Source: Candidatus Levyibacteriota bacterium (GTDB taxonomy: Bacteria > Patescibacteriota > Microgenomatia > Levybacterales > UBA12049). Taken from it: 64,000 bases of DNA. The stretch is taken from assembly GCA_043807135.1 (NCBI GenBank), contig JAZDGF010000001.1, positions 4,573-68,572 of the forward strand. The letters are read 5' to 3'. Shown piece after piece: positions 8,387 to 53,835 of the stretch; the first letter of the stretch is position 1, and every line of letters begins with the position of its first letter. The translations under genes and the position numbers were made by a program. Below the pieces are notes generated by a model. That model saw nothing but the letters and a program-made list of their open reading frames with translations, made no database searches and had not been told where the DNA came from.

Positions 8387-8469
8387 GGTTGGGAATATAG
8401 CTACTCAGCGATGCTCCTTTATCGGAAACAGCTGACACACCAGGGATTCCCTCATCCCAGTCCTCTCGT

Positions 8470-9154: not shown

Positions 9155-9215
9155 TACTAGGGACGAATTCCCTCAAATCTCGACGATTATGCAGGATAGA
9201 GACCGACAATTATGT

Positions 9216-9549: not shown

Positions 9550-9557
9550 ACTGTCTT

Positions 9558-9615
<58 letters not shown>

Positions 9616-9629
9616 AACCTTCTCCAGCT

Positions 9630-9665
<36 letters not shown>

Positions 9666-9704
9666 GCATCGTCGCTGTGGACGCTTGGATGCGATCAGCC
9701 TGTT

Positions 9705-11032: not shown

Positions 11033-11068
<36 letters not shown>

Positions 11069-11089
11069 CTTCGCTACCATAGAACAGTT

Positions 11090-11801
11090 CACTTTTGTTA
11101 CTTGCTCTGATTGATTACAGAGTCTCATGGTCGCCCATGAGGTCGGACTATATCATCCTCACCTTTTCAGGTGGGTTTAGCGTATAGTCTCTGAGGATTC
11201 CTTATTCGAAAATATCTTTATAGCCATATTTTCTTGTTCTTCCCTTACCTTTGTTTAATTTTTCTCTTAAGATTAAAATTCTTTTTAATCCTTTAGTATT
11301 TCTGTGTTCTCCACTTTTAACAAGCTTTGAAATATCACGAAAAATATTAAAGTTGTAAATTTTACTTTTAGAGAGTAAAGGATATTTTGTAAAATATGGA
11401 ATAATTTTATCGACTATTTCTTGAGAGCTTGTAACATCCAGAGAATGCAATCCGTCTTTTCTTACTTTAATAATTCCGCATTTCAATTCTTTTTTTAAAA
11501 CGTAAAGAATTGATGAATCTTTTTGTGAAACATTAAAGCTTAAAACAACTTGCCAATTAACTTTATAATCGCTCTTTTTACGAAGCGAAACATTAAAGCT
11601 TCCTTCTCCTTCTACAAACCCTGCAATAAAATAGCCTAAATTTTCTCGATCAAGGCCTTTCCTGCTGATTGTCTGCGCTGGACGTTTTTTCACCATATCT
11701 TTATATTAACATGGTACCGCCAGATACTTCAACCGTCTGTTTTATACAGTTGCGGTACAGATTTTCCAGCATATAGCTAAATTTTACAACTACAATTGCT
11801 T
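11090..11801 (-). mobile_element. Group I intron with a LAGLIDADG HEG in 23S helix 69 at the L1917-equivalent site (GUAACUAU|AACUG)
   Basis: Exons reconstruct GTAACTAT|AACTGTTCTATGGTAGCGAAG. The 3' core is CCTCAGAGACTATACGCTAAACCC...GAGGATGATATAGTCCGACC (R/P8/S). Confidence 0.65.
11202..11696 (-). CDS. LAGLIDADG homing endonuclease (single motif LGYFIAGFVEGEGSF)
   Basis: LAGLIDADG motif near the N-terminus, inside the L1917 intron. Confidence 0.75.
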   Translation of the reverse strand: MVKKRPAQTISRKGLDRENLGYFIAGFVEGEGSFNVSLRKKSDYKVNWQVVLSFNVSQKDSSILYVLKKELKCGIIKVRKDGLHSLDVTSSQEIVDKIIPYFTKYPLLSKSKIYNFNIFRDISKLVKSGEHRNTKGLKRILILREKLNKGKGRTRKYGYKDIFE

Positions 11802-12639
11802 ATAGTTACTGCTGCCGTTTACTGGAGCTTGTATCCTAAGCTGAACATTGCTGTCTCACTAGAGATACTTGACTTACCAGCACTGGGCAGGTGTCAGCCC
11901 CTATACTTTGCCTTTCGGCTTTGCAGGGACCTATGTTTTAGATAAACAGTCGCTAAATACACTTTTGTTGAAACCGCGTTCTTACACGCGGCAAGGCATC
12001 TCCCATAGGTTACGCCTAGCTTTTTTGCCGAGTTCCTTGAACATCTTTCTCCCGATCGCCTTAGTCTACTCGACCAGCCCACCTGTGTCGGTAATCGGTA
12101 CGGTAAAATATGAGTTTTTTCCGATAAATCGGAACCAATGAGGCTTTTCTTGGAAACTGAAACGTACTATATTGTTCCCTATTGCTAGGAAACTTTCACT
12201 CGTAGTTCAATTAAACAGATTAAGGGATTTGCCACTTATTCCTACTTTACTACTTGGACCCATCTTGCGATAGGCATAGTTTTTCCAATTCCGTTACCCC
12301 CTCAGAATACTCATATTCTGTAGTCGAATTTCAACGACTTATCCATCGAGTTACCCCCCATTATTAAGGGACACCCTTAGGACCGACTAACCCTCCGCTG
12401 ACTTACATTGCGGAGGAAACCTTGGGCATTCGGCGGTCCTGTTTCTCACAGGACTCTCGCTACTCATACCGGCATTCTCACTTCTGTCCGCTCCACAACA
12501 CTTTACAGTTGTTGCTTCACCGCAAACAGAACGCTCCCCTACCAACCTTACGGTTCTCCAGCTTCGGCAAAGAACTTAATCCTCGGTGGATTTTCGGCGC
12601 CAAGTACCAATCCTCCAGTGAGCTGTTACGCTATCTTTA

Positions 12640-12670
<31 letters not shown>

Positions 12671-13239
12671 TTGTCTCTGGAACCTGACTTCCTTCCAAAC
12701 TTAGTTCTTATTTAGAGGCCTTAGCTGGGAGTCTGGGCTGTTTCCCTTTTGACCCATCAGCTTAGCCCGAAGGGTCTGACTAGGATACAACAAGCTCTGG
12801 CATTCGGAGTTTGATTGGTTGCGAGAAATTACTTCCCCACGAACCATTCAGTGCTCTACCTCCAAAACTCTATACGTATCCCGCTATACCAAAATATATT
12901 TCGGGGAGAACCAGCTATCTCTGAGTTCGTTTGGCATATAGCCCCTAACCTCAAGTCATCTCATACCATTGCTACGGTAACGAGTTCGGGCCTCCTCCTA
13001 CATCTCTGTAGGACTCACCCTGCTCAAGGCTAGCTCACTCAGTTTCGGGTCTACTAACTGCAACTAACGACCAATTAGGTCACGCTTTCACTATGTCTCC
13101 GTTACGTTCCGTAACTTAGACTAACGCTGCAATCAATAACTCACCGGTTCATTCTTCAATAGGCACGCCATTATCCTTACGGACTCTGGCTGCTTGTTAG
13201 CCAACAATTTCAGGTCTATTTCATCCCCCTCCCGGGGTG

Positions 13240-13278
<39 letters not shown>

Positions 13279-13942
13279 AGACTTTGGTGTTTAGTCTTGG
13301 AACGTGGCCGCCCCAGCTTCCCACAGGGTTTTATCGTACCCCATGGTACTTAGGTACAAACTATCGGGGTCTTTCCTTTCATGTACGAGCCTTTCACTCT
13401 CTATGGGGGATTATTCCAAATCCTTCTATTAGAAAAAACCGCATCGAATATCGTCTGCCCTGCAACCCCCGAATAAATTCGGGTTTAGACTTTTCCGCTT
13501 TCGCTCGCCGCTACTTACGGAATCTCGTATGATTTCTTTTCCTGGTGTTACTAAGATGTTTCAGTTCACACCGTTCCCCACCAAACACTATATATATCAT
13601 TGCTGATATATTTTTATGTTTGGTTCTTGTAAAAACAAGGGGTTTCCCCATTCGGAAACCGCCGGATCATAGGTTTATGACACCTACCCGACGAGTATCG
13701 CCGCCATATGCGTCCTTCCTCGGCCAAAATCTCCTAGGCATCCATTATTGGCATTATGAGTAGATTTAAATTATGTTAATTCCGTTAAATTTTCCGTAAA
13801 CAAAAATGCTTTTGGAAAATCAAACGGAAATTCTTCTCCTCACTTGTCAAAGAGCCAAATCATTATCTTTTCGGGATAACCCCCTCTCACTAGGGGGCTT
13901 GCCCCAAAAGATAATCTTACTAGTTTTATTTAGCTTGACGAG

Positions 13943-42444: not shown

Positions 42445-42493
42445 AAAGGGATTATATCAAACTTGAAGCTAAATAGGTTTTTGGAGTTATTTG

Positions 42494-42568
42494 TACCAGG
42501 GGGGAGGATCGAACTCCCGAACCTCGGGGGTATGAATCCCGCGCTCTAACCAACTGAGCTACCCTGGC
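42494..42568 (-). tRNA. tRNA with CAU anticodon (Met-type; Met versus Ile2 versus initiator cannot be resolved by eye)
   Basis: Reverse complement GCCAGGGTAGCTCAGTTGGTTAGAGCGCGGGATTCATACCCCCGAGGTCGGGAGTTCGATCCTCCCCCCTGGTA forms a cloverleaf with loop TTCATAC. The first acceptor pair is G1-U72; no CCA is encoded. Confidence 0.8.
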
Positions 42569-43242
42569 ATATTTATCTTCAAACCCTCAATAAGTCCAAT
42601 AATTTTATGATAAAGGAGACCTGGCTTTCTAACTCTGATCCTAATTGTACCATAATGATTGTTGAAATTCTCATAAACCTTTTTGTTTTCAGTTTTTTTA
42701 AAACTAGTCTTTGTAAACTGATTTTCTTTAACTCTTAACGTTTTTAACCAATATTTTTTAACTACCTGCTCTCTTTTTCTATGGCTTTCATTAATTCCTA
42801 TGCTACATATTAAGTTATTAGAATTAATTCCGAAACATATTTTGAGCCAATGTGCAAAGAATTTTACCATTTCTGGATCTGAATTACAAAAAGAAAATTC
42901 ATTACTTTTTTTACTGCCTTCTCCCCAATAAATGCCTAGGCCGCTGACAAGAAATTCTCGTTTAGTAAAATTTTTTAACGATTTAATTCCAGATTTCTTG
43001 TTTTCAGCTATTAATTTTAATCTTTTTTCTTTTTGCAGAAAAGCACTCCTTAATCTTCCTAATTCTGCACCTTTTATTGAAGACTTTCGTAATTTTTCTA
43101 GTTGCTGCACACTTAAAATAATATCCCTTACCCAAATACTTGCAGTGCCTTTAGAAATGCTCAATTTTTTTGCAATTTTATTCACACTTATACCCCTTTT
43201 GCGAAGTCTCCGAGCCTCAATTTTTAATTTAAATTTAGCCAT
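42559..43242 (-). CDS. Free-standing HTH + LAGLIDADG-like protein (paralog of 50681-51385), 3' end overlapping the tRNA 5' end
   Basis: N-terminal HTH (RLRKRGISVNKIAKKLSISKGTASIWVRD). Central LVSGLGIYWGEGSK followed by NSDPEMVKFFAHWLKICFGI, reminiscent of a single LAGLIDADG motif and the following helix. Confidence 0.55.
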   Translation of the reverse strand: MAKFKLKIEARRLRKRGISVNKIAKKLSISKGTASIWVRDIILSVQQLEKLRKSSIKGAELGRLRSAFLQKEKRLKLIAENKKSGIKSLKNFTKREFLVSGLGIYWGEGSKKSNEFSFCNSDPEMVKFFAHWLKICFGINSNNLICSIGINESHRKREQVVKKYWLKTLRVKENQFTKTSFKKTENKKVYENFNNHYGTIRIRVRKPGLLYHKIIGLIEGLKINMPG

Positions 43243-43307
43243 AAAAAGAACTAACGAATAATCTAAGTACTTCTACTATACTGTAGGTTCTTATTATTTG
43301 TCAATAA

Positions 43308-43336
43308 TTGACTCAGGCTTAGTCAAATGCTATAAT
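43308..43336 (+). promoter_or_regulatory. Consensus sigma-70 promoter (TTGACT-17-TATAAT) driving the ncRNA below
   Basis: TTGACT at 43308-43313, TATAAT at 43331-43336. Confidence 0.55.
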
Positions 43337-43342
43337 ATTATC

Positions 43343-43626
43343 CACGCGCGGGGTAGTGTACAGTGCACATGAGGCTCAATATGGGCCCCTTTGCTAGTAA
43401 TGGCAAAAGAGAATTCGGCTGTATCGGTGAAATCCTAACAATATTTAAGTATTGAAGGACAACACCGAGGGAACCTACTTGTTAAGTGGGACACCGTAGA
43501 GACTAAACGCCGAACCCCTTTCATAAGGGTGATGATATAGTCCGACACTCTAAGTAATTAGAGAAACAGATTGCATAATCTCATAGGCTAGGCGCAACTC
43601 CTAGCCCCGCAACACAGGTTTTTTAA
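43343..43626 (+). ncRNA. Promoter-driven ~285-nt RNA with a group I intron catalytic core, not embedded in a recognisable host gene
   Basis: R-like GTAGAGACTAAACG, P8-like hairpin CCCCTTTCATAAGGG, S-like GATGATATAGTCCGAC and P9-like CTCTAAGTAATTAGAG. It is near-identical in order and sequence to the 3' core of the 23S L1917 intron. A 3' hairpin GGCTAGG...CCTAGCC is followed by CCGCAACACAGGTTTTTT. Confidence 0.5.
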
Positions 43627-43641
43627 CCTCAAGAATACTTC

Positions 43642-43669
43642 TTGACTTATATTATCAAAGTATTATAAT
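43642..43669 (+). promoter_or_regulatory. Sigma-70 promoter (TTGACT-16-TATAAT) 8 nt upstream of the antitoxin ATG (near-leaderless)
   Basis: TTGACT at 43642-43647, TATAAT at 43664-43669, ATG at 43678. Confidence 0.5.
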
Positions 43670-43677
43670 TGTAATGT

Positions 43678-43968
43678 ATGAATAAGACAATCTTACAAGT
43701 CCCAATTAATCAGGATTTAAAAATTAGTGCCGAAAAAGAAGCTATCTCTCAAGGATTTTCTTCACTTCAGGAACTAGTTAGAGTATTTCTCTCCAAGATT
43801 GCAACACATAAAATAGAAGTTACACTCCAGGATTCAACTATGCTTTCAGGAAAGAATGAAAAAAGATACCTTGATATGACAAAAGATTTTGAATTAGGAA
43901 AGAATATTTATTCTTCAGATTCAGTGACTGATTTAGTCAATAAATTACATGAAAATCCAGCATCATAG
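43678..43968 (+). CDS. DinJ/RelB-like antitoxin
   Basis: RHH-like N-terminus (ILQVPINQDLKISAEKEAISQGFSSLQELVRVFLSKIA); 20-nt overlap with the downstream toxin. Confidence 0.55.
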   Translation: MNKTILQVPINQDLKISAEKEAISQGFSSLQELVRVFLSKIATHKIEVTLQDSTMLSGKNEKRYLDMTKDFELGKNIYSSDSVTDLVNKLHENPAS

Positions 43969-44212
43969 AGAGTTTCTAAAGAATTATAAGAAAAGAGTTG
44001 CTCCCTATCCTAAACTTGAAAAACAATTTAAAACACAACTAGAAAAACTCCTTAAGGATTCCAATGATCCATCATTAAGAGATCATAAACTTATCGGTAA
44101 GAGAAAAAACTTTCGTTCATTTTCAGTTACAGGAGGTATTAGGGTGATCTATACAATTGTTGATAATAATATCTGGCTATATGATATTGGTTCTCATAAT
44201 CAAGTTTATTAA
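43949..44212 (+). CDS. YafQ/RelE family mRNA interferase toxin
   Basis: ...DHKLIGKRKNFRSFSVTGGIRVIYTIVDNNIWLYDIGSHNQVY matches the RelE/YafQ C-terminal pattern. Confidence 0.7.
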   Translation: MKIQHHREFLKNYKKRVAPYPKLEKQFKTQLEKLLKDSNDPSLRDHKLIGKRKNFRSFSVTGGIRVIYTIVDNNIWLYDIGSHNQVY

Positions 44213-44277
44213 AAGAATTAGATTCTATCATCGTCTATTCCACGTAGCACAAGTAGCATGTTAAATAAATATTTTAA

Positions 44278-44367
44278 CCTAAATCCGGTATAAATACTGG
44301 CGTGATCTGGAGAAGGAAGAAGGTGTGTATTTCTTCCAGTCCCCGCAACATCGGTTTTTTAGCCTCA
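44278..44367 (+). repeat. Inter-cassette repeat copy R1 (~90 nt)
   Basis: CCTAAATCCGGTATAAATACTGGCGTGATCTGGAGAAGGAAGAAGGTGTGTATTTCTTCCAGTCCCCGCAACATCGGTTTTTTAGCCTCA. Confidence 0.8.
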
Positions 44368-44377
44368 ATTTGACATT

Positions 44378-44386
44378 TGATATAAT
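44378..44386 (+). promoter_or_regulatory. Extended -10 element (TGaTATAAT) 6 nt upstream of the EEP-gene ATG (predicted leaderless)
   Basis: TGATATAAT at 44378-44386; ATG at 44393. Confidence 0.45.
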
Positions 44387-44392
44387 CTGATT

Positions 44393-45217
44393 ATGAGAAT
44401 TGCCTCATATAACATATTAAGTGGCGGTTTTAGTTCTTATAACTATGAAGCTTCATCACCCGAAAGAATTAAATTGCTTCAAAAAGCAATCAAAATCATT
44501 AATGCCGATTTTATTGGGCTAATTGATACTTTCAGGTGGGATACTTTATACAGCAATACTCAACTAGCTCAACTCTTTGGTTACAAAAAGGCATACTGCA
44601 TTAACCTAAATGATAGTCGTTTAAGAAAAAAAGGGCATAACAACGGGATAACCGTATTGACCAACATACCAATTAAACACTTTGAAACAATTAGTTTAAA
44701 AACAAGAGACGCTATTAAAACAACTCTTCAAATAAATAATAATAAATTAGACATATTTACGGTTTATTTGGATGATCTAAGCGAAGATGTCAGGGTTAAG
44801 CAAGCACAGATATTATTACAACATGTTAATCAAAAAAAACCAACAATTATAATTGGCGATTTAAATACGCTAAGCCCAAGTGAGATAACAAAAGTAACCC
44901 CGTTAATTAATAAGCTTTTCGTTAGATATCCGCAGCTATCGGAGAGCTTAATACCCGTTTTAGAGGAAATGAAGCGTGGTGAGGTAATTAAGATGCTTGA
45001 AGAAAACAGATTTCAAGACGCAAATAGAGCATGCACCCCAACCGTACCTAGTAAATTATTTCCAATAAAAACAGAACGTGCATTTCTAAGATTGGATTAT
45101 GCTTTCCATACAAAAAATATTCAGATTTCTAATTTCAGCGTGCCGAGAGACTCTATTTTTGATCAGACATCTGATCATTATCCGATAATTTTTGAAGCTA
45201 GCGTAAATCAGGAATAA
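44393..45217 (+). CDS. Endonuclease/exonuclease/phosphatase (EEP) family protein
   Basis: ASYNIL, IIGDLN and SDHYPI motifs typical of the DNase I-like EEP fold. Confidence 0.75.
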   Translation: MRIASYNILSGGFSSYNYEASSPERIKLLQKAIKIINADFIGLIDTFRWDTLYSNTQLAQLFGYKKAYCINLNDSRLRKKGHNNGITVLTNIPIKHFETISLKTRDAIKTTLQINNNKLDIFTVYLDDLSEDVRVKQAQILLQHVNQKKPTIIIGDLNTLSPSEITKVTPLINKLFVRYPQLSESLIPVLEEMKRGEVIKMLEENRFQDANRACTPTVPSKLFPIKTERAFLRLDYAFHTKNIQISNFSVPRDSIFDQTSDHYPIIFEASVNQE

Positions 45218-45291
45218 ACACTGGCGTGGTTTGGGAGAGAAAATAGGTGCGTATTTCTTCCAATCCCCGCAACATCGGTTTTTTAGCCTCA
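45203..45291 (+). repeat. Inter-cassette repeat copy R2 (5' end overlaps the EEP gene stop; hairpin degenerate)
   Basis: GTAAATCAGGAATAAACACTGGCGTGGTTTGGGAGAGAAAATAGGTGCGTATTTCTTCCAATCCCCGCAACATCGGTTTTTTAGCCTCA. Confidence 0.75.
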
Positions 45292-45326
45292 GTTTTTCAG
45301 AACTAAGTAGGGTAATTTGCACCTTC

Positions 45327-45335
45327 TGGTATAAT
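45327..45335 (+). promoter_or_regulatory. Extended -10 element (TGGTATAAT) 6 nt upstream of the FabZ-like ATG (predicted leaderless)
   Basis: TGGTATAAT at 45327-45335; ATG at 45342. Confidence 0.45.
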
Positions 45336-45341
45336 CTCCGT

Positions 45342-45815
45342 ATGTCCCCTGAACGACGCAGTTTAAAAAGAACTGATATAGAAGGTATTCTTCCTCATAG
45401 AAGACCTTTCATGTTTTTAGAAAGTGCTGAAATTGTTGAACCGGGCGTTAAAGCAATTGGTGTTCTTGCAGATTTATCACATCCAGATTTTGCTTTCCTT
45501 AAAGGTCATTTTCCTTCATTTCCTATAGTCCCAGGGGCAATTCTCATGGAAACGCTCGCAGAGCTTTCGGGTATAGCAGTTAGCTCTAGAGCCTCAGGAC
45601 AACATAATAAAATTGGTGTTTTGAGAAGAGATGCTATGGATTATAAGCAAATGGTGAAGCCTGGCGATTTGGTGCAGTTAGAGGCAGAGGTTTTTGCATT
45701 AAAGATGGGTATTGGAAGAAGCCGAGTAAAAGCGATTAAAGATGGAAAAACCGTAGTGGAAGGAGAAATAGTTTTTGCACTAATTGACAAACCCGAAACT
45801 CAACTCTTATCCTAA
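45342..45815 (+). CDS. FabZ/FabA-like hotdog-fold dehydratase
   Basis: ILPHRRPFMFLE...GHFPSFPIVPGAILMETLAELSG matches the FabZ active-site region. The ORF-track start at 45231 lies inside repeat R2, so the Met at 45342 is preferred. Confidence 0.65.
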   Translation: MSPERRSLKRTDIEGILPHRRPFMFLESAEIVEPGVKAIGVLADLSHPDFAFLKGHFPSFPIVPGAILMETLAELSGIAVSSRASGQHNKIGVLRRDAMDYKQMVKPGDLVQLEAEVFALKMGIGRSRVKAIKDGKTVVEGEIVFALIDKPETQLLS

Positions 45816-45897
45816 ATCTGGTATAAATACAGGCGTAGTTTGGGAGAGGAAGAAAGTGCGTATTTCCTCCAACCTCCGCAACATTGCAATTTAGGTT
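45811..45897 (+). repeat. Inter-cassette repeat copy R3 (supplies the FabZ-like stop codon; terminal inverted repeat CCTAAAT...ATTTAGG)
   Basis: CCTAAATCTGGTATAAATACAGGCGTAGTTTGGGAGAGGAAGAAAGTGCGTATTTCCTCCAACCTCCGCAACATTGCAATTTAGG. Confidence 0.8.
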
Positions 45898-45947
45898 GAT
45901 ATAACAAGTTAAACTAAAACCCGAACTCCCCTGATGATACAAATCTA

Positions 45948-46226
45948 TTATGCCTTTAATTCTTGATTCATTCTCTCGCTTATGAACATTTTCATTAAAG
46001 ACTGATAAGGAATATCTTTTTTGTTTGCAATCTCTTTAATGCGAGCAAGTAAATAAGATGGCAACCTTAATGAGATTGACTCTGTTGACGGTTTTAAATT
46101 GGGGAAAATCATTTCCTCACTTTTAGACCAATCAAAATATTCAGACGAGTCCGCTTTTGCCCAAAATTTTCTTTCCTCGTCTTCATTGTTAAAATTTGGA
46201 ATTTGTTTAAGTTTTTTCATATTCAC
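45948..46226 (-). CDS. brnA: BrnA-like antitoxin
   Basis: ...FWAKADSSEYFDW...ISLRLPSYLLARIKEIANKKDIPYQSLMKMFISE matches the BrnA pattern; 20-nt overlap with brnT. Confidence 0.7.
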   Translation of the reverse strand: MNMKKLKQIPNFNNEDEERKFWAKADSSEYFDWSKSEEMIFPNLKPSTESISLRLPSYLLARIKEIANKKDIPYQSLMKMFISERMNQELKA

Positions 46227-46503
46227 CTCTTTCTTTTTTGTGCATGTCTCTTGCTGAAATTACCCTAATTCTATTATTCCTAATCGTAAAAAAAATCGTT
46301 AACTTTCTATTTGTATTTGTTTTTCCCCAAAGCATATATCTTTTTTCTATTGTTGAATGTTTTTTATCTTCAGAAAAAACAATGGGTTTATTAAAAAATA
46401 CTTCTTCCGCTTCCTGATTATAAACATCATGTTTTTTAAGATTTTTATCAATATTTCCCTTATCCCATTCAAATGCGACTACTTTAGGCAAAACCTTAAT
46501 CAC
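46207..46503 (-). CDS. brnT: BrnT-like toxin (DUF497 ribonuclease)
   Basis: FEWDKGNIDKNLKKHDV...RVISARDMHKKERGEY matches the BrnT pattern; GTG start. Confidence 0.75.
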   Translation of the reverse strand: MIKVLPKVVAFEWDKGNIDKNLKKHDVYNQEAEEVFFNKPIVFSEDKKHSTIEKRYMLWGKTNTNRKLTIFFTIRNNRIRVISARDMHKKERGEYEKT

Positions 46504-46509
46504 AATAAA

Positions 46510-46539
46510 AGTATATTACAGAAATATACATCTGTCAAG
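46510..46539 (-). promoter_or_regulatory. Sigma-70 promoter (TTGACA-17-TATACT) 7 nt upstream of the brnT GTG start (predicted leaderless)
   Basis: Reverse complement TTGACAgatgtatatttctgtaaTATACTtttattgGTG. Confidence 0.45.
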
Positions 46540-46611
46540 TACTAATGGTATTTGAGGCTAAATCCCAAGCCTCTCTTATAGGCGATGTTGGAACAACTGC
46601 TTGGATTTTAT

Positions 46612-46701
46612 TCTAAATCAGGTATAAATACAGGTGTGGTTTGGGAGAGGAAAAAGGTGCGTATTTCTTCCAATCCCCGCAACACAAGTCTTTTAGCCTC
46701 A
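46612..46701 (+). repeat. Inter-cassette repeat copy R4
   Basis: TCTAAATCAGGTATAAATACAGGTGTGGTTTGGGAGAGGAAAAAGGTGCGTATTTCTTCCAATCCCCGCAACACAAGTCTTTTAGCCTCA. Confidence 0.8.
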
Positions 46702-46812
46702 AAATAGGTTCTATAACATCATCTATCCCTCGGAACTCAGGATTTCATTTGGAGATGTCTAGTACTGGGTATTGTCTATGTAGTTTTCAAAGCACCCGTT
46801 AAGGTGACTGAC

Positions 46813-47583
46813 CTATTTTTTAGAAGTTTTTTTTACCATGCCCTCGAAGGCACGAAGTATTTCTAGAGGCGTGACAAATACGATAGTGTTATTTTTATCA
46901 GCAGATAACTCACCTAGGGTTTGAAGAGTTCTAAGATGTAAACCTCCTGCTGTTGAAACAAGCTTTTTTGCTGCCAAAGCAATATTTTCTGATGCTGATT
47001 TTTCTCCCTCAGCCCGTATAATAATTGCCCTTCTTTCCCGTTCCGCCTCTGCCTGACGGGCAATTACCCTCTTCATCTCATCCGGCAAGATAATATCTTT
47101 TAGCTCCACTGATTCCACCTTTATCCCCCAAGGGTCTGTGGCTTTATCTATAATTTTTTGAATATTTTTTGCCACATCATTTCTTTTGGATAAAAGGTCA
47201 TCAAGGGCTGTTTCTCCCACTACATTCCGCATGGTAGTTTGAGCAAGTTGGGATACGGCATAATAATAATCTTCTACTTCAATGACTGCTTTGTTTGCTA
47301 TGTTTATACGGTAGTAAATAACTGCATTGACTTTTGCTGAAACATTGTCTTTGGTAATGGCTTCCTGATCCGGTACATCAACGGCTTTAACCCGCATGTC
47401 TATCCTAATCCAGGATTCTATAACCGGCAAAATAATCCTCCACCCAGGACTCATCAACCCTACATATTTACCAAATCTAAATTTAACACCACGCTGATAT
47501 TGATTGACCTGTTTTATGGAATAAATAAGAAGCAATAATAAAGGGAATATCAATAGACCTTCCATATAAATGTAGTATACCAT
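46813..47583 (-). CDS. SPFH/band-7 (stomatin/prohibitin-like) protein
   Basis: N-terminal TM, then an SPFH core (...RIDMRVKAVDVPDQEAITKDNVSAKVNAVIYYRI...). Confidence 0.8.
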   Translation of the reverse strand: MVYYIYMEGLLIFPLLLLLIYSIKQVNQYQRGVKFRFGKYVGLMSPGWRIILPVIESWIRIDMRVKAVDVPDQEAITKDNVSAKVNAVIYYRINIANKAVIEVEDYYYAVSQLAQTTMRNVVGETALDDLLSKRNDVAKNIQKIIDKATDPWGIKVESVELKDIILPDEMKRVIARQAEAERERRAIIIRAEGEKSASENIALAAKKLVSTAGGLHLRTLQTLGELSADKNNTIVFVTPLEILRAFEGMVKKTSKK

Positions 47584-47747
47584 ACTCTACTGACCAACTT
47601 CCTCATAGTATAAATCATTAAAGCGACACCAATAATAATTAAAGGCATGCCCAGTATCAAATTCCAACCAGAAACACGAGAGACAAAAAAAATTACGAAT
47701 ACTCCATTTAATTGCCGGGGTAGTCATACTTGCGATGGGCGTTGTAA

Positions 47748-48188
47748 TTATAGCGGGTTTGATTTAATGTTTTTGCAAGTCTTGCATTTTCCAAAAAATT
47801 CAACCTTATGCTCTTCTGTTTCAAAACCATAAAGCTTATTAGCTGTTTTTGAAATTTTATCAATCTGATCATGAAGTAAATCGCTTTTTATATCTTTAAC
47901 ATTTCCGCATTTAGTACAAACAATGTGATGGTGATGAGGTAAGGAAGTGAGTTCATAACGGAATTTTCCTTCATTAAACTCTACTTTATTAATAAGCCCT
48001 TTTTTAGTCATAAGATTAATGTTTCGGAAAACAGTTACCCTATCGATTTTTATACTTGTTTGATTAAGTTTTTCAATTATTTCACTTACGCTAATTGGCT
48101 TTTTTATTTTTTTTAATATATTTAAAATAGCAGTTCTTGCCAAAGTTTTCTTTATCTCTTTTCCTTTTAATATATTTTTTGTATTCAT
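47748..48188 (-). CDS. Fur family metalloregulator (likely Zur)
   Basis: HHHHIVCTKCGNV...CKTCK metal sites and an N-terminal winged helix. It is divergent from a ZIP transporter gene. Confidence 0.85.
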   Translation of the reverse strand: MNTKNILKGKEIKKTLARTAILNILKKIKKPISVSEIIEKLNQTSIKIDRVTVFRNINLMTKKGLINKVEFNEGKFRYELTSLPHHHHIVCTKCGNVKDIKSDLLHDQIDKISKTANKLYGFETEEHKVEFFGKCKTCKNIKSNPL

Positions 48189-48306
48189 AGAGTGATATTA
48201 TAACCAAAATCTATTCTTACTACAATTTCCACTTGACATAAAGTATAATAAGACATTATACTACTAAATGCAACTCTGTTGCATCTTATTACAAGACAGT
48301 ATTTAA

Positions 48307-49050
48307 ATGGAAAAACTTATTTTTATTTTTATTGCAACTTTTTTAATTAGCCTTGCTTCTTTAATAGGTGTTTTTACTCTTTCAATTAAAGAAAAGGTTT
48401 TGTCAAAATTTCTTCTGTTTCTTGTTTCGCTATCAGCAGGTGCCTTAATGGGTGGGGCTTTTCTTCACCTTTTACCCGAAGCCTCTGAAAAGCTCAACAA
48501 TGGAGATATGTATACTATTGTTTTACTTTCTTTTGTTCTGTTTTTCTTAATAGAGAAGCTTCTTCATTGGCGCCATTGTCATAAAAAAAACTGTAAAGTT
48601 CACACATTTGGCTATATGAATCTTTTTGGGGATGCTGTTCACAATTTTATCGATGGATTAATTATTGCAGCGACTTTTTTAATCGATGTAAATTTAGGTA
48701 TAGTAACAAGTTTTGCCATTGCTCTGCACGAAATACCACAGGAAATTGGAGATTTTGGAGTCCTCCTTTATTCCGGATTTAGTCGCAAAAAGGCTCTTAT
48801 TTCTAATTTCTTAGTAGGGCTGACTGCAGTTTTTGGAGGTATTCTTGGATATTTCCTCTCACTTCAAATAGAAAATATGACATCATATCTTCTTCCCTTT
48901 GCTGCAGGAGGATTTATTTACATTGCTGCTTCAGACTTAATGCCTGAAATGCGAAAAGAAGCCAGTCTTAAAAAATCTATGATTTCTTTTGGCGTCTTTC
49001 TTATCGGCATTCTTATTATGTTTTTAGTTAAATTTATTGGTCATGAGTGA
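48307..49050 (+). CDS. ZIP family zinc transporter (ZupT-like)
   Basis: HEIPQEIGDFGVLL signature; paralog of 21540-22280. Confidence 0.85.
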   Translation: MEKLIFIFIATFLISLASLIGVFTLSIKEKVLSKFLLFLVSLSAGALMGGAFLHLLPEASEKLNNGDMYTIVLLSFVLFFLIEKLLHWRHCHKKNCKVHTFGYMNLFGDAVHNFIDGLIIAATFLIDVNLGIVTSFAIALHEIPQEIGDFGVLLYSGFSRKKALISNFLVGLTAVFGGILGYFLSLQIENMTSYLLPFAAGGFIYIAASDLMPEMRKEASLKKSMISFGVFLIGILIMFLVKFIGHE

Positions 49051-49151
49051 AAGTGTATCTAAAATCATTTAACTAAAGCGCCTCACATATTAAATTTGAG
49101 CGTAAAAAGTTCCCACATAATCAACTAGAGCCAGAAGAATTGATAAGCTAG

Positions 49152-49227
49152 CCTAAATCTGGTATAAATATAGGCGTTGTTTGGGCAAGGAAGAATGTGC
49201 GTATTTCTTCCAACCCCCGCAACACAA
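49152..49227 (+). repeat. Inter-cassette repeat copy R5 (tail replaced by hairpin ATCGCTC-CAAAA-GAGCGAT + T-run)
   Basis: GCCTAAATCTGGTATAAATATAGGCGTTGTTTGGGCAAGGAAGAATGTGCGTATTTCTTCCAACCCCCGCAACAC. Confidence 0.75.
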
Positions 49228-49251
49228 ATAATCGCTCCAAAAGAGCGATTT

Positions 49252-49596
49252 TTAGTTCTTGAAAAATAAATTAAACCACTTTTGCCAATTAGGAGATTTC
49301 TCTTGAGGCTTTTTTTCCTCTTTTCCTTCTAAGAGCTTTGTTGGAATTATCACTGGCTGCTCCCCCGGTTTCCCCATAAAAAGCTTATTTCTTGCTTCCT
49401 GCTCTATAAAATTTTTACTTTGCACAATTGAAATTTGTGCTTTTAGTTTTTGATTTAACATCTTTTCATCATCAAGCTCTTTTTGAGCGCTAACTACAAG
49501 GTCCTGTTTTTGCATAAGATCATAAATGGAACGAGCCAAGTTATTTATAACAAAAAGTAAAGCTATAACGACTGCAATAAAAACTACCTTTTTCAT
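49252..49596 (-). CDS. FtsB/DivIC-like septum formation initiator
   Basis: TM helix, then a coiled coil and ...NFIEQEARNKLFMGKPGEQPVII, the family C-terminal motif. The internal Met is preferred; the ORF-track start is at 49692. Confidence 0.5.
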   Translation of the reverse strand: MKKVVFIAVVIALLFVINNLARSIYDLMQKQDLVVSAQKELDDEKMLNQKLKAQISIVQSKNFIEQEARNKLFMGKPGEQPVIIPTKLLEGKEEKKPQEKSPNWQKWFNLFFKN

Positions 49597-49720
49597 ATAT
49601 TTAATCTTAGCATAAAAATATTTAGTATATTTTTCTCCTTGACTAAATTTAAATTCAATGATATTATAGGACATTATTACTGCCAAATACATTTAAACCT
49701 AGATCGAGGTTATTAAAAAT

Positions 49721-50581
49721 ATGAAACCTATTAAATTACGGGATGCCCACCAAGAATTTACAAAATTTTTAAAAGATAAGAATCATTCAAATTCAACCGT
49801 TGTTGCTTATGGTAAGGATATTGATCAGCTTATTTCTTTTCTCGAAGAACTTGAAAAAAACCATATCCATGAAGTATCTAAAGAAAATATTGAAGCTTTC
49901 CTAGCTAAGATGGGTAAAAATGGCTATACCCCAAAGTCAATTTCAAGAAAAATTAATTCTACAAGAACTTTTTATAGGTTCTTAAAAGTAAACGAATATG
50001 TTACAGATGACCCTTCTCTTTTAATTTCTCATCCAACTTATCAACTTGCTCCACCCAGAATTCTTACACCAACCGAATACAGAGCTTTAAGAGATGCTGC
50101 TAGAAATGATGCTAGAATGTACGCTGTTATTGAGCTTTTGCTTCAAACAGGAATTAGAATCGGTGAACTTGCCAACCTTAGGCTTTCAGATATTAAGAAT
50201 GACAGTCTAAGAATTGCTCCTTTTGAAAAACATGAAGAAAGAACCGTTCCTCTTAATAGAAGAGCAAAGGAAGCTTTAAATAGCTATATTAAGATAAGAC
50301 CAAATGTAAAAGAAGAAACTGTTTTCATTACAAAATCAGGAAAGCCTTTCTTGATTAGAAATATCAGAACTGCAATTGAACGCTATTTCAGACTTGCTGA
50401 AATAAAAAATGCTAAAGTAAACGATTTAAGACATACTTTTGTTGCCCATCACTTAAAACATGGTGTTTCTTTAATTGTTCTATCTAGGGTGTTGGGGCAT
50501 AAAAGACTTTCTACGACTGAACGTTATCTTCAATACGTTGCTGATCGAGGAAAAGAAACTCAGTCTCTTAGCGAACTTTAA
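49721..50581 (+). CDS. Tyrosine recombinase/integrase (XerC/XerD-like size; no IntI-specific insertion seen)
   Basis: Catalytic R...H-x-x-R...Y pattern (LRHTFVAHHLKHG...LGHKRLSTTERYLQ); 286 aa. Confidence 0.85.
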   Translation: MKPIKLRDAHQEFTKFLKDKNHSNSTVVAYGKDIDQLISFLEELEKNHIHEVSKENIEAFLAKMGKNGYTPKSISRKINSTRTFYRFLKVNEYVTDDPSLLISHPTYQLAPPRILTPTEYRALRDAARNDARMYAVIELLLQTGIRIGELANLRLSDIKNDSLRIAPFEKHEERTVPLNRRAKEALNSYIKIRPNVKEETVFITKSGKPFLIRNIRTAIERYFRLAEIKNAKVNDLRHTFVAHHLKHGVSLIVLSRVLGHKRLSTTERYLQYVADRGKETQSLSEL

Positions 50582-50594
50582 AGTAGATTCCAGG

Positions 50595-50668
50595 TGGGTC
50601 AGGATGGATTCGAACCATCGAACTTCCATTTTATAAGAATGGCACTCTAACCACTGAGTTACTGACCC
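50595..50668 (-). tRNA. tRNA-Ile with UAU anticodon
   Basis: Reverse complement GGGTCAGTAACTCAGTGGTTAGAGTGCCATTCTTATAAAATGGAAGTTCGATGGTTCGAATCCATCCTGACCCA. Anticodon stem CCATT/AATGG, loop CTTATAA; the variable loop appears to be 6 nt. Confidence 0.7.
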
Positions 50669-50680: not shown

Positions 50681-51385
50681 TTATACCATGACTTCAAGTC
50701 TTTCTGCATAATAATTAGAGATAGCTTTTATTGTCATCATAATTTTTTCTTTTATCAGAATATTGCTTACTAATAAACCGCATGTTCCATGACCAAATCC
50801 CTTGTGATCTATCTTAACTCTCGTGCTTTGTTTAATATAAGGCTTTGCAAACTGCGACAGTGGAAGCTTTAATACTTTACTCCAATACTTCATTTCTTTT
50901 TTAATATCCATATCCTTATATAGCTGTAAGGTAACTTTTATTCTCTTTTTAGGAATTTCTAATGCATTTACCATCCAACATAAAGTGAACGTAAGCATTT
51001 CAGGATCTGTATTGTTAACAACAATTGGACCATTCATTCGCTTTGTTCCTTCTCCCCAATATAAAAATATTCCAGCTAGTTCAAGTTCTTTTTTGCTTAG
51101 AGATGACCAACGCTCTTTTTCTCTTTTATATGTTACATTTATTCTGCTTTCACGTTTTTTTTGTTTTGTAATCCTAATTTTCTCTATACTTAAAAACTTA
51201 TTTTTCTTTCTCGTCTTTTCAAGCTGAATTATTTGCTTTGTAGTTAGAGGAAGTTTTGCAATCCAGTCAGAAAGTGTACTTTTTGAAACATTTATTTCCC
51301 GTCTAATTTCACTATAAGTTTTACCTTGTTTTCTTAATCTTATCGCTTTTGCTCTATCGTTTAACCTTGCCATAAAACGAACCAT
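50681..51385 (-). CDS. Free-standing HTH + LAGLIDADG-like protein (paralog of 42559-43242), immediately 5' of tRNA-Ile
   Basis: N-terminal HTH (IRLRKQGKTYSEIRREINVSKSTLSDWI); LAGIFLYWGEGTK followed by NTDPEMLTFTLCWMVNALEI. Confidence 0.55.
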   Translation of the reverse strand: MVRFMARLNDRAKAIRLRKQGKTYSEIRREINVSKSTLSDWIAKLPLTTKQIIQLEKTRKKNKFLSIEKIRITKQKKRESRINVTYKREKERWSSLSKKELELAGIFLYWGEGTKRMNGPIVVNNTDPEMLTFTLCWMVNALEIPKKRIKVTLQLYKDMDIKKEMKYWSKVLKLPLSQFAKPYIKQSTRVKIDHKGFGHGTCGLLVSNILIKEKIMMTIKAISNYYAERLEVMV

Positions 51386-51468: not shown

Positions 51469-53835
51469 TTAGAGCCTTGCTCTAGCAGCAATTTCTGCCT
51501 CAATGGAGTTTACTTCTTTTCCGTATTTAAGCCTAGATAATTCTTTTATAAGTTCTGCAACTCTTGGATTCTCCGCTGCTTTCTCTTTTGCCATATCCCG
51601 AGTTAAATCCATAGAAAAAGGCGGAATCGGTTCTCCATAAACTACTGTTTTTATATAGGCGTTATATCTATCAACATTAATAAGGTCTGCTTCGGTAAAT
51701 ACCGGCTGGAATTCATGTTGGAGATAGTTTGCATCTGTAACACCTACCCTAAATGCTGTAAGAGTTCCCACGTTTCCAAAAATTGCATTTTTAACTTCTT
51801 CATCCATTTGTCCAATAAACTGATTCGCAACTATTAAATTAAGCCTGTATTTTCTTGCTTCAGATAAAATTTGGGCAAAATCAGGAGTCGCAAAATTTTG
51901 AAACTCGTCTACATATAGATAAAAATCTCGCCTTGATTCTTCAGGAATATCTTGCCTACTCATTGCAGCAACTAAAATCTTAGGAACTAGAATAAGTCCC
52001 AAAAATGCAGAGTTTTCTTCTCCGATTTTTCCCTTGGAAAGTGAAACCAAAAGAATTTTTCCTTCATCCATTACTTTTCTAAAATCAAAGGAAGACTCTG
52101 ATTGTCCGATAATATTTCGCATCATTTTATTGGTTACAAAACGACCGAACTTAGAGACAATATAATCAAGTACTTCAGATTTATGAAAATCACTTGTCTG
52201 AGCAATCTGATCAGTCCAGTAACGTCTTATAATCGGGTCTTTTACTTTTGGTAAAAGTTCTTCTACAAAAGTAGAATCTGTTAAAACACGAACAACTTCT
52301 ATAAAAGTATTACCAGGCTCAGACATAACCGTAAGCATGGCGTTTCTAATTGCGTGCTCAAAACGTGGACCGATAATTCCTGTTTTATTAGGATCATAAA
52401 GCTTATACATAAGTCCAACGATTGCAGAAACTACATAGTGTTTTTGATCTTCTGTTTTTGCCTCAAGCATGTTTAATCCCATTGGCCGATCTACGTCTGA
52501 GGGATCAAATAATATTACATCTTCAGCTCGCTCAGGTGGAATAAGAGGTAAAAGCTTATCAATAGTATCATGAGGATCAATAAAACAAACACCTTCTCCG
52601 TTTTTAATGTCTTGCAAAATCATATCTTTTAGAAATTCTGATTTTCCAACACCGGTTTTTCCAATAGTATACATATGTTTTCTCCTATCATCTCTTTGCA
52701 TATAAATAGGTTTTGATAAGCCTCTAAAAATGCTCCTTCCTAAGAAAAGACCTGTGTCTGGAATTTGTGCAGGAGCTGGTGCTCTTTTTGAGGTAAGCCA
52801 GTGAATATGCGGAGTTTGCACCTGTTTATTTGGAAAATGAAAAATCGTTGCCAGCTCCTCACTTGTTAAGACTGATGTTTGACCTCGCATTGGCATATAT
52901 CTGTAAACAAAATCCGTCATAAACATGCCTTTAACCAAATGCTTATTTGTTGTAAAAGAATTTGCTCCAGAGAATTGGCTAAAAGCATTTTTAATATTAT
53001 TCAAATGAGCTTCTGCTGATTCTTTGGTGCTTGATGAAACAACCATTCTTATTACCACATTAAAGCCTGGTTTTGAAATTTTATTTTCAACCCCTTCTAG
53101 TTCTTTTGAATCAGATGAATACTTAGCAGTTTCTGGGTTTGCCTCAGATTTTTTAGTAGAAGCAATATAGCTCCTACCTCTTTTTTTCCATCTTGAACCG
53201 GCCGGCTCAACAATAATCTGAATTGCAGCTCCCTCCCCTTCAGCCATTTTTGCTAAAACAGAAGTAATTGAAGAAAGAGAATCAGTCGGTAAGTCTTTAA
53301 AAACTTTAATTGGTAAGTAATCCGAAGTTTTAAGCTTCATGCTCGCAACAACAACTTTTCCTTCATTGGAAAAAATATTATATTCATTACCAAAGGTATA
53401 TCCTTGTCTTCCAGACTTTGAATCAACTACTTTAATCTCTGCGTCAGGATATGCGCCATTAATTTGCTTTTCAATTAAATCCTTGTATTTATTTGGCACA
53501 TCAACATAAAAACGGATGTCTTGTGGAATACCGACAATCTCAAAAGTAAGATGCGGTTGAGATTTTAAAAAACTTAACTTCCCACTTTTTCTTAAACCTG
53601 CAATACCTGCAAAAAGCTGCTCTGCTGCGTCAATTTTTATTTCATTGTCTCTTGGAAGTGTAATTTGTAAAAGAGTTGAATTAAGTGAATCTTTTTCTCT
53701 ATTCCTATGTCTATACCAAAGATATATTACGTAAAAAATTGCTGCTGATGTGAGAACAATAAAAGAAGAAATTAAAAACCCAAGAAAAAGAGATATTAAA
53801 AAAGGGTACAGCTGATCTAGTGTAAAGTTAATCAT
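51469..53835 (-). CDS. VirD4/TraD/TraG-like type IV coupling protein ATPase (membrane-anchored)
   Basis: N-terminal TM helices, Walker A TIGKTGVGKSEFL, Walker B LYVDEFQNF. Confidence 0.5.
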   Translation of the reverse strand: MINFTLDQLYPFLISLFLGFLISSFIVLTSAAIFYVIYLWYRHRNREKDSLNSTLLQITLPRDNEIKIDAAEQLFAGIAGLRKSGKLSFLKSQPHLTFEIVGIPQDIRFYVDVPNKYKDLIEKQINGAYPDAEIKVVDSKSGRQGYTFGNEYNIFSNEGKVVVASMKLKTSDYLPIKVFKDLPTDSLSSITSVLAKMAEGEGAAIQIIVEPAGSRWKKRGRSYIASTKKSEANPETAKYSSDSKELEGVENKISKPGFNVVIRMVVSSSTKESAEAHLNNIKNAFSQFSGANSFTTNKHLVKGMFMTDFVYRYMPMRGQTSVLTSEELATIFHFPNKQVQTPHIHWLTSKRAPAPAQIPDTGLFLGRSIFRGLSKPIYMQRDDRRKHMYTIGKTGVGKSEFLKDMILQDIKNGEGVCFIDPHDTIDKLLPLIPPERAEDVILFDPSDVDRPMGLNMLEAKTEDQKHYVVSAIVGLMYKLYDPNKTGIIGPRFEHAIRNAMLTVMSEPGNTFIEVVRVLTDSTFVEELLPKVKDPIIRRYWTDQIAQTSDFHKSEVLDYIVSKFGRFVTNKMMRNIIGQSESSFDFRKVMDEGKILLVSLSKGKIGEENSAFLGLILVPKILVAAMSRQDIPEESRRDFYLYVDEFQNFATPDFAQILSEARKYRLNLIVANQFIGQMDEEVKNAIFGNVGTLTAFRVGVTDANYLQHEFQPVFTEADLINVDRYNAYIKTVVYGEPIPPFSMDLTRDMAKEKAAENPRVAELIKELSRLKYGKEVNSIEAEIAARARL

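Follow-up and report, generated by a model that had tools for sequence, protein, structure and literature searches.

To our knowledge, integrons are the only well-characterized case of a chromosomal recombinase that assembles arrays of single-gene cassettes. We analysed 64,000 nucleotides (nt) of the Candidatus Levyibacteriota contig JAZDGF010000001.1 (positions 4,573 to 68,572 of the forward strand; hereafter, the window), in which five small gene cassettes, each closed by a copy of a repeat that we call R, follow the 3′ end of a tRNA(CAU) gene. As in sedentary chromosomal integrons such as the Vibrio cholerae superintegron with its VCR-type attC sites, the array runs in one direction and consists of small cassettes (0.2–2.6 kb, one to three genes) that each end in their own repeat, and the repeats are highly similar within a lineage, as VCRs are. 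In both, new cassettes appear at the slot beside a fixed attachment site, no cassette contains a recombinase, and the content is diverse, strain-specific and rich in toxin–antitoxin genes, with some genes on the opposite strand, orphan enzymes and defence-like genes. Variable cassette content with boundaries at the repeats, by which integrons are recognized, is thus also found here.

The locus differs from integrons in its recombinase, its fixed site and its repeats. No IntI is encoded: the recombinase lies beyond the distal end of the array, behind a DivIC-like gene, and scores 65.5 bits against the integron-integrase model TIGR02249 (cut-off, 265 bits) and 33 bits against NF011946 (cut-off, 435 bits). 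A tRNA 3′ end takes the place of an attI beside intI as the fixed site, the cassettes have promoters of their own, and R is conserved in sequence and not in structure, with weak single-stranded DNA folds and no covariation. Read from the sequence, neither the core of R (CCCCGCAAC) nor the start of the following cassette (GGTTTTTT) fits the RYYYAAC/GTTRRRY motifs of attC cores. An original prediction made from the window alone had described a platform without canonical attC cores and with a recombinase other than IntI; the integrase score, the core motifs and the folds all agree with it that this is not a canonical integron.

Two further groups of elements bear comparison. Tandem elements that target tRNA or tmRNA genes, and cis-mobilizable elements (CIMEs), likewise insert at a tRNA 3′ end, leave the tRNA intact, place a short tRNA segment at every junction and accrete in tandem, and CIME-like units are flanked by att sites, lack an integrase and are moved in trans. 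Integration at the tRNA 3′ end with a direct repeat and an intact tRNA is seen in all arrays studied here, and empty sites exist, but the integrase that a genomic island encodes next to its att site is missing. Our units are also smaller by a factor of 10–100, an integrase is absent from all 66, there is no known parent element, R is mostly non-tRNA sequence (a conserved arm of about 65 nt plus 9–10 nt of tRNA), and the one nearby recombinase candidate is a conserved chromosomal gene of the Xer type. The integrative mobile elements exploiting Xer (IMEX) and the pdif modules of Acinetobacter plasmids resemble the cassettes in being small, site-bounded modules, often of toxin–antitoxin or single accessory genes, that are presumed to be moved by host Xer proteins. 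They differ in that R is a direct repeat of about 75–95 nt at a tRNA rather than one of alternating dif-like sites of 28–31 bp, and our locus has no GC-skew switch and no convincing dif-like dyad centred on the core.

We consider it likely that the locus is a hypervariable cassette array that site-specific recombination has assembled at the tRNA(CAU) 3′ end, an integron-like platform that is not an integron. The array is apparently undescribed: full-text literature searches yielded no description of a cassette-array system of this kind in Candidate Phyla Radiation (CPR) bacteria, Patescibacteria or Levybacteria. There is a substantial chance that it represents a distinct, convergent gene-capture system.

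A cassette array anchored at a split tRNA gene

The array begins at the 3′ end of a tRNA(CAU) gene at 43347–43613 (+) that is split by a group I intron of 197 nt. When joined, 43347–43376 and 43574–43613 are recognized by ARAGORN as a 70-nt tRNA-Met(cat) with a C1×A72 mismatch, and the joined exons are identical to intron-less homologues in relatives such as L016 (L-numbers, from L002 to L061, denote stretches and contigs of relatives that were compared with the window). Exon 1 comprises tRNA nt 1–33, and the intron occupies the anticodon loop between nt 33 and 34 (43377–43573, +), its splice sites being placed by comparison with intron-less alleles. A permissive Rfam search located RF00028 at 43367–43564 with 78.9 bits (E = 2e-19), above the gathering score of 50, and removal of the intron restores the gene. 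The interrupted gene is missed by ARAGORN on the raw window, as is the intron by a gathering-threshold Rfam run on the whole window. Just upstream, at 43308–43336 (+), is a promoter-like site (TTGACT-17-TATAAT with TG; 11 of 12 positions agree, a consensus match only). We also considered a tmRNA at 43340–43615 (GGGG…CCCCGCAACA) and rejected it: ARAGORN reports none, Rfam reports the group I intron and the joined exons form a tRNA.

The last 10 nt of exon 2 (43574–43614, +), CCCCGCAACA at 43605–43614, are the core common to all repeats, which makes the tRNA end an attB-like site. This core of 9–10 nt corresponds to tRNA positions 66–74. The joined exons form a valid tRNA that ends in CCCCGCAAC(A), which identifies the ‘invariant block’ of the repeats, by sequence identity, as the 3′ acceptor strand of tRNA(CAU), together with the discriminator and one more base. 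The original prediction placed no tRNA at the start of the array and so overlooked this anchor, the putative attachment site. All arrays whose start is on the contig begin at the 3′ end of this 70-nt tRNA(CAU), be the gene intron-less (L016, L040 and L041) or intron-containing (L018, L025, L046, L044 and L050); the intron is also present in L057 and absent from L054 and L061.

From this anchor, the window reads tRNA(B)-O-P′ [cassette 1] P-O-P′ [2] P-O-P′ [3] P-O-P′alt [4] P-O-P′ [5] P-O-B′. Here, P denotes the left part of R (about 65 nt) and O the common core CCCCGCAAC(A); the first 18 nt of each following cassette are P′, and the native flank is B′. The general sequence of P′ is AYNGGTTTTTTAGCCTCA, often with a promoter module behind it. 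Cassette 1 (43615–44350, +) has P′ (ACAGGTTTTTTAACCTCAA), its own promoter, an open reading frame (ORF) of 96 amino acids (aa) at 43678–43968, a YafQ/ParE toxin at 43949–44212 and R1 at 44275–44350. Cassette 2 (44351–45274, +) has P′, TGATATAAT placed 6 nt before an ATG, an EEP-family nuclease/phosphatase (44393–45217) and R2 (45199–45274), which supplies the stop codon. Cassette 3 (45275–45883, +) consists of P′ with the conserved promoter module (…GCACCTTCTGGTATAAT-N6-ATG), a FabA-like hotdog protein (45342–45815) and R3 (45808–45883). Cassette 4 (45884–46684, +) opens with an alternative P′ (ATTGCAATTTAGGTTGATATAAC) and encodes BrnA (45948–46226) and BrnT (46207–46503), both on the − strand, before R4 (46609–46684). 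Cassette 5 (46685–49224, +) has P′, an SPFH/Band 7 protein (46813–47583, −), a Fur-family protein (47748–48188, −), a ZIP transporter (48307–49050, +) and R5 (49149–49224). Checked against Pfam, the modules first named in this region hold for YafQ/ParE, EEP, BrnT/BrnA on the − strand, SPFH, the Fur family and ZIP, and the hotdog protein is FabA-like; the 96-aa upstream partner of the toxin, which had been called DinJ, has no Pfam match and is unconfirmed.

After R5, the native flank B′ (49225–49251; sequence scan) has a bidirectional terminator hairpin at 49230–49250 and no P′. The conserved distal flank follows with a DivIC/FtsB-like gene at 49252–49692 (−); its ORF has 146 aa compared with 112–115 aa in homologues, and its true start is probably near 49590. 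Beyond it are a Xer-type tyrosine recombinase at 49721–50581 (+) and, as a conserved neighbour outside the array, tRNA-Ile(UAU) at 50593–50668 (−; tRNA search), matching the recombinase next to a tRNA gene that had been predicted at the end of the array.

In many cassettes, the opening P′ leads into a conserved module (…ACACCACAGTTGGAATGGTCGCACCTTCTGATATAAT), 6–8 nt after which comes an ATG. The motif TGnTATAAT followed 6–8 nt on by the start of a cassette gene occurs in the window at 44377–44395, 45327–45344 and 43664–43680 and in many cassettes of L004–L051. Among 85 cassette ORFs, 21 have such a −10 element and 8 have a Shine–Dalgarno-like motif. A −10 element 6–8 nt before the start codon, together with the rarity of Shine–Dalgarno motifs, suggests that the mRNAs of cassette genes may be leaderless.

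Two tRNA(CAU) genes are present, the 70-nt gene at the array and one of 76 nt at 42493–42568 (−), and neither has the full features of a bacterial initiator. The former has the C1×A72 mismatch and no GGG/CCC in the anticodon stem; the latter has three consecutive G–C pairs (nt 28–30), but a G1–U72 pair. A tRNA-Ile(UAU) is also present.

Cassettes are the unit of change among relatives

Three genomes with R emerged from a scan that covered one genome per species: SMAG_U10269 (a Patescibacteria metagenome-assembled genome), Ca. Levybacteria RIFCSPLOWO2_12_FULL_39_17 and a low-GC contig labelled Gammaproteobacteria. A metagenome scan added 48 further stretches, and a hidden Markov model (HMM) of R gave 100 hits over all of these stretches, including 63 unique full-length copies. 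In about 50 further contigs of Levybacteria, R arrays occupy this same tRNA, and nearly all of their cassettes are different. More than 20 loci have the conserved order MurD – tRNA-Met – (helix–turn–helix (HTH) protein) – tRNA(CAU) – array – DivIC(−) – Xer(+) – tRNA-Ile(UAU) – HTH protein – TraD-like ATPase. The proposal of a cassette platform with variable content, which had come with suggestions to search for the repeat elsewhere and to look for polymorphism between strains, is borne out in both respects: the repeats do occur elsewhere and bound variable content, and relatives differ in the presence, absence and order of cassettes between conserved flanks, with breakpoints at the repeat core.

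The 66 cassettes (0.2–2.6 kb) give 73 protein clusters, nearly all of them singletons, and 79 of 101 ORFs are oriented along R, with 22 opposed. Pfam and PADLOC assign the proteins to toxin–antitoxin families (YafQ/ParE/RelE, HigB-like Gp49, DUF433/DUF5615, Fic and HTH antitoxins) and find some of them defence-like; enzymes include an amino-acid kinase, epimerases, an AMP-binding enzyme, HD and NUDIX hydrolases, a sugar transferase and radical SAM proteins. Tyrosine or serine recombinase domains are absent from the cluster representatives (8 window and 65 other-locus proteins), and no integrase or integrase fragment was found in the 66 cassettes. The sole DDE protein belongs to an IS630 insertion, a 1.2-kb element (HTH and DDE_3) at 4340–5447 of L037; the otherwise identical cassette of L031 and L053 is without it.

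The distribution of P′ defines the cassette. P′ follows the tRNA at 13 of the 15 unique tRNA junctions in arrays, and is absent after terminal repeats, which continue directly into native flanking sequence, such as the DivIC stop codon. It is also absent from the empty sites of L054 and L061, where tRNA(CAU) runs straight into MurD with no R within 20 kb. Because P′ is present only where a cassette follows, we count it as part of that cassette and P-O as part of the preceding one; P′ is not a trailer of the tRNA.

Units delimited in this way recur in different contexts. An 814-bp Phd/RelE cassette of L002 and L044 is 95% identical in L050 and 86% identical in L016, in which it is the second cassette, and its upstream neighbours differ (an epimerase, BrnTA or another cassette); between L044 and L050, identity is 95% in this cassette compared with 74% in the tRNA-intron DNA. 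The BrnTA cassette, the fourth in the window, is the first in L050, with 83% identity compared with 69% in the core flank, and the first cassette of L009 is also the first of L029 and the second of L046, with different cassettes upstream. Recurrent cassettes align end to end, from O to O, and each brings its own variant of R, such as AAATCAGG in both BrnTA cassettes. That cassette identity exceeds core-flank identity indicates that cassettes move between lineages. In different lineages, at least six different first cassettes, one with the alternative P′ type included, abut the tRNA exactly at the core.

The closest pair is L044 and a contig of SMAG_U10269, which are 99.8% identical over 8450 bp, up to a break some 16 nt short of the end of O. 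Left of this break, L044 has the tRNA, and SMAG_U10269 has a full R with another cassette before it. Judged from this alignment, the difference is a recent gain or loss of at least one extra cassette at the tRNA-proximal slot. Many contigs (L009, L010, L014, L017 and L030) break inside R, which fits population heterogeneity at the locus.

Arrays keep to this tRNA whichever gene lies behind them, be it DivIC, MurI–MurD instead of DivIC (L005) or the TrpS neighbourhood (L037). L005 (CAZIDK010000001.1, 294 kb) is labelled ‘uncultured Gammaproteobacteria’ and has full R beside MurI–MurD, with a MurD 56% identical to that of the window; it is low-GC and CPR-like, and is probably mis-binned or mislabelled. 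No R array was matched in phage, plasmid and viral collections (megablast/blastn and a viral scan). A looser core pattern gave two viral matches without other features of R; we took these as chance and ruled out a phage or plasmid origin.

The repeat is conserved as sequence

Five direct copies of R were located by nhmmer and a repeat search at 44275–44369, 45199–45292, 45808–45899, 46609–46702 and 49149–49241, all on the + strand, which confirms the five same-orientation elements of about 90 nt in the original prediction. The repeat search returned them as a five-member family of 98 nt (starts, 44271, 45195, 45804, 46605 and 49145) with 71–83% identity to R1 across 98 nt. When up to three mismatches are allowed, a degenerate core pattern of 20 nt matches precisely these five sites (0.01 expected by chance), and an HMM built from the five copies found no further full copy in the 64 kb. 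A second, four-member family adds a sixth, partial copy that had been missed, at 43599–43632 on the 3′ end of the intron-containing tRNA(CAU); it consists of CCCCGCAACA and the tail GGTTTTTTAACCTCAA, without the left 65 nt of R.

The consensus of R is TAnCCTAAATCTGGTATAAATACAGGCGTgGTTTGGGAGAGGAAGAA-nnnn-CGTATTTCTTCCAAYCCCCGCAACA. Across 48–63 copies, TCTGGTATAAATA and CGTATTTCTTCCAAYCCCCGCAACA are near-invariant, and variation is concentrated in the middle, above all in the four loop bases; the per-column identity is 82% (48 copies). R also contains an arm, CGTATTTCTTCCAAT, separate from the TCTGGTATAAATA block and the core, and a near-consensus extended −10 element, TGGTATAAAT, 6–7 nt upstream of the GCG that opens a putative hairpin. 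Several finer points of the first description need correction. Its perfect 8-bp hairpin exists in the consensus and is interrupted by mismatches in R2 (AGAAAATA), R3 and R4; its invariant block CCCCGCAACA reads CTCCGCAACA in R3; the upstream stop codon is supplied by two repeats (R2 for the EEP gene and R3 for the FabA-like gene) and not three; and its conserved tail TTTTAGCCTCA follows R1, R2 and R4 and is lacking after the other repeats. Across relatives, ORFs end inside R in only about 4 of 43 cassettes, which rules out R as a stop-codon appendage. We also rejected a displaced 3′ half of the tRNA or of the intron as the source of R, given that a forced alignment is identical only from CCCCGCAACA onwards.

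RNAalifold proposes hairpins in R. In four candidate helices examined in 48 copies with shuffle and slide controls, however, paired cells, compensatory changes and covariation did not rise above the controls, and substitutions mostly disrupt pairs. Single-stranded DNA folds of either strand are weak (−7 to −12 kcal/mol; z-scores, −0.2 to −2.8). The folding of both strands that had been suggested as a check thus reveals no attC-like fold, and we rejected an attC-like or RNA structure of R. Conservation at the level of sequence, without compensatory variation, fits a site on double-stranded DNA that may be bound by a protein, unlike attC.

A divergent subfamily of R (subfamily 2; L008, L031, L037 and L053) retains only GTTCGTATTTCTTCCAGYCCCCGCAAC, and this stretch is probably the essential part of R. 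In L008, L031, L033, L037, L049 and L053, and also in L013 and L034, it comprises about 27 nt (GTTCGTATTTCTTCCAGYCCCCGCAAC) followed by a terminator hairpin (AGCCCG…CGGGCT) and a T run, and lies downstream of a 71-nt tRNA(CAU) beside a tRNA-synt_1b gene (TrpS/TyrS-type). No Xer gene is present on the contigs of this subfamily; in L037, the search for a recombinase returned only sensor, HATPase, NUDIX and IS630 proteins. Two other variants were seen. A hairpin insertion of about 27 nt (CCCGAACCATTCGGTACGGG…) lies within the R loop in L016 (about 2540–2620) and L023 (about 120–202; both in oriented coordinates), and in L057 (about 7330–7420) the 3′ end of tRNA(CAU) is followed by CATTTTTCTTCCAGACCCC, which is similar to the R arm but lacks the core, perhaps as the remnant of an array that has been lost.

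The neighbouring Xer-type recombinase

The 286-aa protein encoded beyond the array has the two domains of simple tyrosine recombinases (Pfam), and we assign it to the Xer type on Pfam, NCBIfam, Protein Data Bank (PDB) and synteny evidence. It scores 169 bits for XerD (cut-off, 329.6), 168 for XerC (335) and 151 for XerA (220), all below the NCBIfam cut-offs, and we place it in none of these three families. The closest solved structures in the PDB are XerD and XerA; IntI4 is matched only with E = 1.7e-8 and in the N-terminal half. Xer-related recombinases of candidate phyla form the ‘Cand’ subgroup, which has been discussed together with Xer-like enzymes (PMC8138268), and the window enzyme is probably a member of it. 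In all loci of R subfamily 1 for which the far end is on the contig, the Xer-type gene lies 0.5–1 kb from the end of the array, and it is a candidate catalyst by this proximity only. A tblastn search with the Xer protein matched the chromosomal orthologue alone.

Four observations weigh against assigning cassette movement to this enzyme. Its gene belongs to the conserved core, with at least 79% identity across more than 120 protein clusters, mostly from Levybacteria or Patescibacteria (NCBI lists the window's own copy under a Candidatus Levyibacteriota metagenome-assembled genome); the DivIC–Xer–tRNA-Ile synteny is kept in L054, L061 and L057 (the closed genome CP066685.1), which lack R; the gene lies on the far side of DivIC, at the distal array end; and the divergent-subfamily contigs L037, L053 and L031 have no recombinase. 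An orthologous, syntenic XerC/D had been named in advance as grounds for abandoning the cassette proposal, and the recombinase is indeed a conserved, syntenic gene of the Xer type. Because the gene is also present in array-less genomes, a role in the array is suggested by proximity only. The enzyme may be a housekeeping Xer, a domesticated array recombinase or both; it is the most likely catalyst of cassette movement, an assignment that by itself is possible but on balance doubtful.

GC skew is negative throughout the 64 kb with no switch at the array, which shows that the array is not at the terminus and rules out a dif location. A dyad search found GGAAGAA-N9-TTCTTCC upstream of the core and the T-arm of the tRNA, and a weak CCAAT…ATCGG symmetry around O.

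A model of cassette movement and its alternatives

As no cassette contains a recombinase (the IS630 insertion aside), catalysis would take place in trans. We hypothesize that cassettes move by enzyme-catalysed, conservative site-specific recombination on double-stranded DNA. The mobile unit would extend from P′ to O, with P′, one to three genes and R of about 75 nt (arm P and core O). As a circle, it would have one complete P-O-P′ site and a conserved backbone of about 150 nt (R, O, P′ and the promoter) in addition to its cargo. Strand exchange within the 9–10-bp core would take place between P-O-P′ of the circle and either another R or the tRNA end (B-O-B′ or B-O-P′); at the tRNA end, it would place the circle immediately behind the undamaged tRNA to give tRNA-O-P′[genes]P-O-B′. 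Excision would run the same reaction backwards. Many rounds of insertion, for the most part at the tRNA-proximal slot, combined with excision and exchange between copies of R, could then generate arrays of 0 to 6 or more cassettes with a different make-up in each strain.

Some of our results argue against this model. We observed no excised circle, no read across an empty junction and no activity, and no circular contigs were found when terminal overlaps were looked for. The core is only 9–10 bp long, and no convincing dyad-symmetric recombinase site is centred on O. Moreover, in an existing array, RecA recombination between R copies of about 90 nt, or the uptake of DNA from relatives, could cause much of the shuffling with no need for a dedicated enzyme.

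This last point leads to the main rival explanation, a homologous-recombination hotspot in which R is a conserved intergenic element with another role (insulator, promoter or 3′ untranslated region (UTR)) and RecA, with no part for a site-specific recombinase, has shuffled the cassettes after one ancient founding event at the tRNA. Copies of R are long and similar enough (75–95 nt, 70–95% identical) for RecA events at low frequency, the near-consensus TGGTATAAAT within R and the promoters of the cassettes suit an intergenic element, and the neighbouring Xer belongs to the core genes and occurs without arrays, too. The 99.8%-identical pair could equally be explained by allelic replacement through flanking homology. 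However, the tRNA and R share only 9–10 nt, and yet several different first cassettes join the tRNA at precisely that core; arrays follow the tRNA into the DivIC, MurI–MurD and TrpS neighbourhoods; P′ is absent from empty sites; and the strong conservation of 25 nt beside the core is unexplained if the length of homology alone counts. We therefore regard homologous recombination as an unlikely basis for the array and prefer site-specific recombination at the tRNA end.

The two remaining explanations fit the data less well. R might act as RNA, with a hairpin resembling a tRNA acceptor (GCGUGG…CCCCGC-AACA) that serves 3′ processing, stability or regulation, in which case identity with the tRNA would be mimicry rather than a scar of recombination; the transcript could start from the −10 element in R or be the 3′ UTR of cassette genes, and such a role could coexist with recombination. 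The long consensus hairpin, the base of which mimics the acceptor stem, has G–U pairs on the + strand only, TGGTATAAAT is suitably spaced from its opening GCG, and subfamily 2 has a canonical terminator hairpin behind the core. We nevertheless consider this very unlikely: the four helices lack covariation and most substitutions break pairs, fold energies are no better than those of shuffled sequences, no Rfam family was matched, R is equally conserved beside opposite-strand genes (cassettes 4 and 5, and 22 of 101 ORFs overall), and mimicry would leave unexplained why P′ occurs only with a cassette. Also very unlikely, and slightly less probable still, are decayed tRNA-integrating islands or prophages that each lost their integrase and left tandem fragments with duplicated tRNA 3′ ends, which would account for the classic island signature of 3′-end integration with a repeated short tRNA segment and has a parallel in the tandem accretion at t(m)RNA genes known, for example, from Dehalococcoides ssrA islands (PMC3146451), but not for 66 cassettes without an integrase or fragment of one, for units of 0.2–2.6 kb with one to three intact genes, for a repeat of about 75 nt of conserved non-tRNA sequence with merely 9–10 nt of tRNA, for a separate R variant in every cassette or for the lack of matches in phage, plasmid and viral collections.

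CPR bacteria have tiny genomes with few recognizable mobile elements, and a dedicated hypervariable locus would thus be a principal channel for gene flux and for differences between individual strains. A bolder form of the proposal, which is possible but on balance doubtful, is that Levybacteria have a convergent, non-homologous counterpart of the integron, in which a conserved chromosomal recombinase of the Xer type (‘Cand’) captures and shuffles self-promoted mini-cassettes tagged by a sequence-specific site of about 95 nt and the 3′ end of tRNA(CAU) is the equivalent of attI. Genomes below about 1 Mb would then have a dedicated locus for the exchange of toxin–antitoxin, defence and metabolic genes. 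A second, unrelated solution would mean that cassette platforms have evolved more than once, and would broaden the range of recombinases and sites worth searching for. The HMM or pattern of R provides a simple probe for the cassette pool in metagenomes, and the system is small enough for reconstitution in Escherichia coli.

Other features of the window

Two paralogous proteins of about 230 aa, at 42559–43242 (−) and 50681–51385 (−), are 27% identical and have an N-terminal HTH, with HTH_23 and HTH_28 as the only Pfam matches. Each adjoins a tRNA gene, one between tRNA-Met and tRNA(CAU) and the other beside tRNA-Ile. Their WGEG(S/T)K motif looks LAGLIDADG-like, and L054 has a NUMOD3 protein in the same slot; the slot beside tRNA(CAU) may be a hotspot for homing endonucleases. 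Next to the locus in all relatives is a 788-aa protein (51469–53835, −, in the window) with DUF8128 and TraG-D_C domains and weak matches to TraD/VirD4-like coupling proteins. Elsewhere in the window, in the region 8060–13766, the 23S rRNA match covers 3226 nt compared with 2925 nt in the model and hence contains insertions, with ORFs within or beside it (for example, 11202–11696), and the 5S rRNA gene lies 2.3 kb from the 23S rRNA gene, with two ORFs between them.

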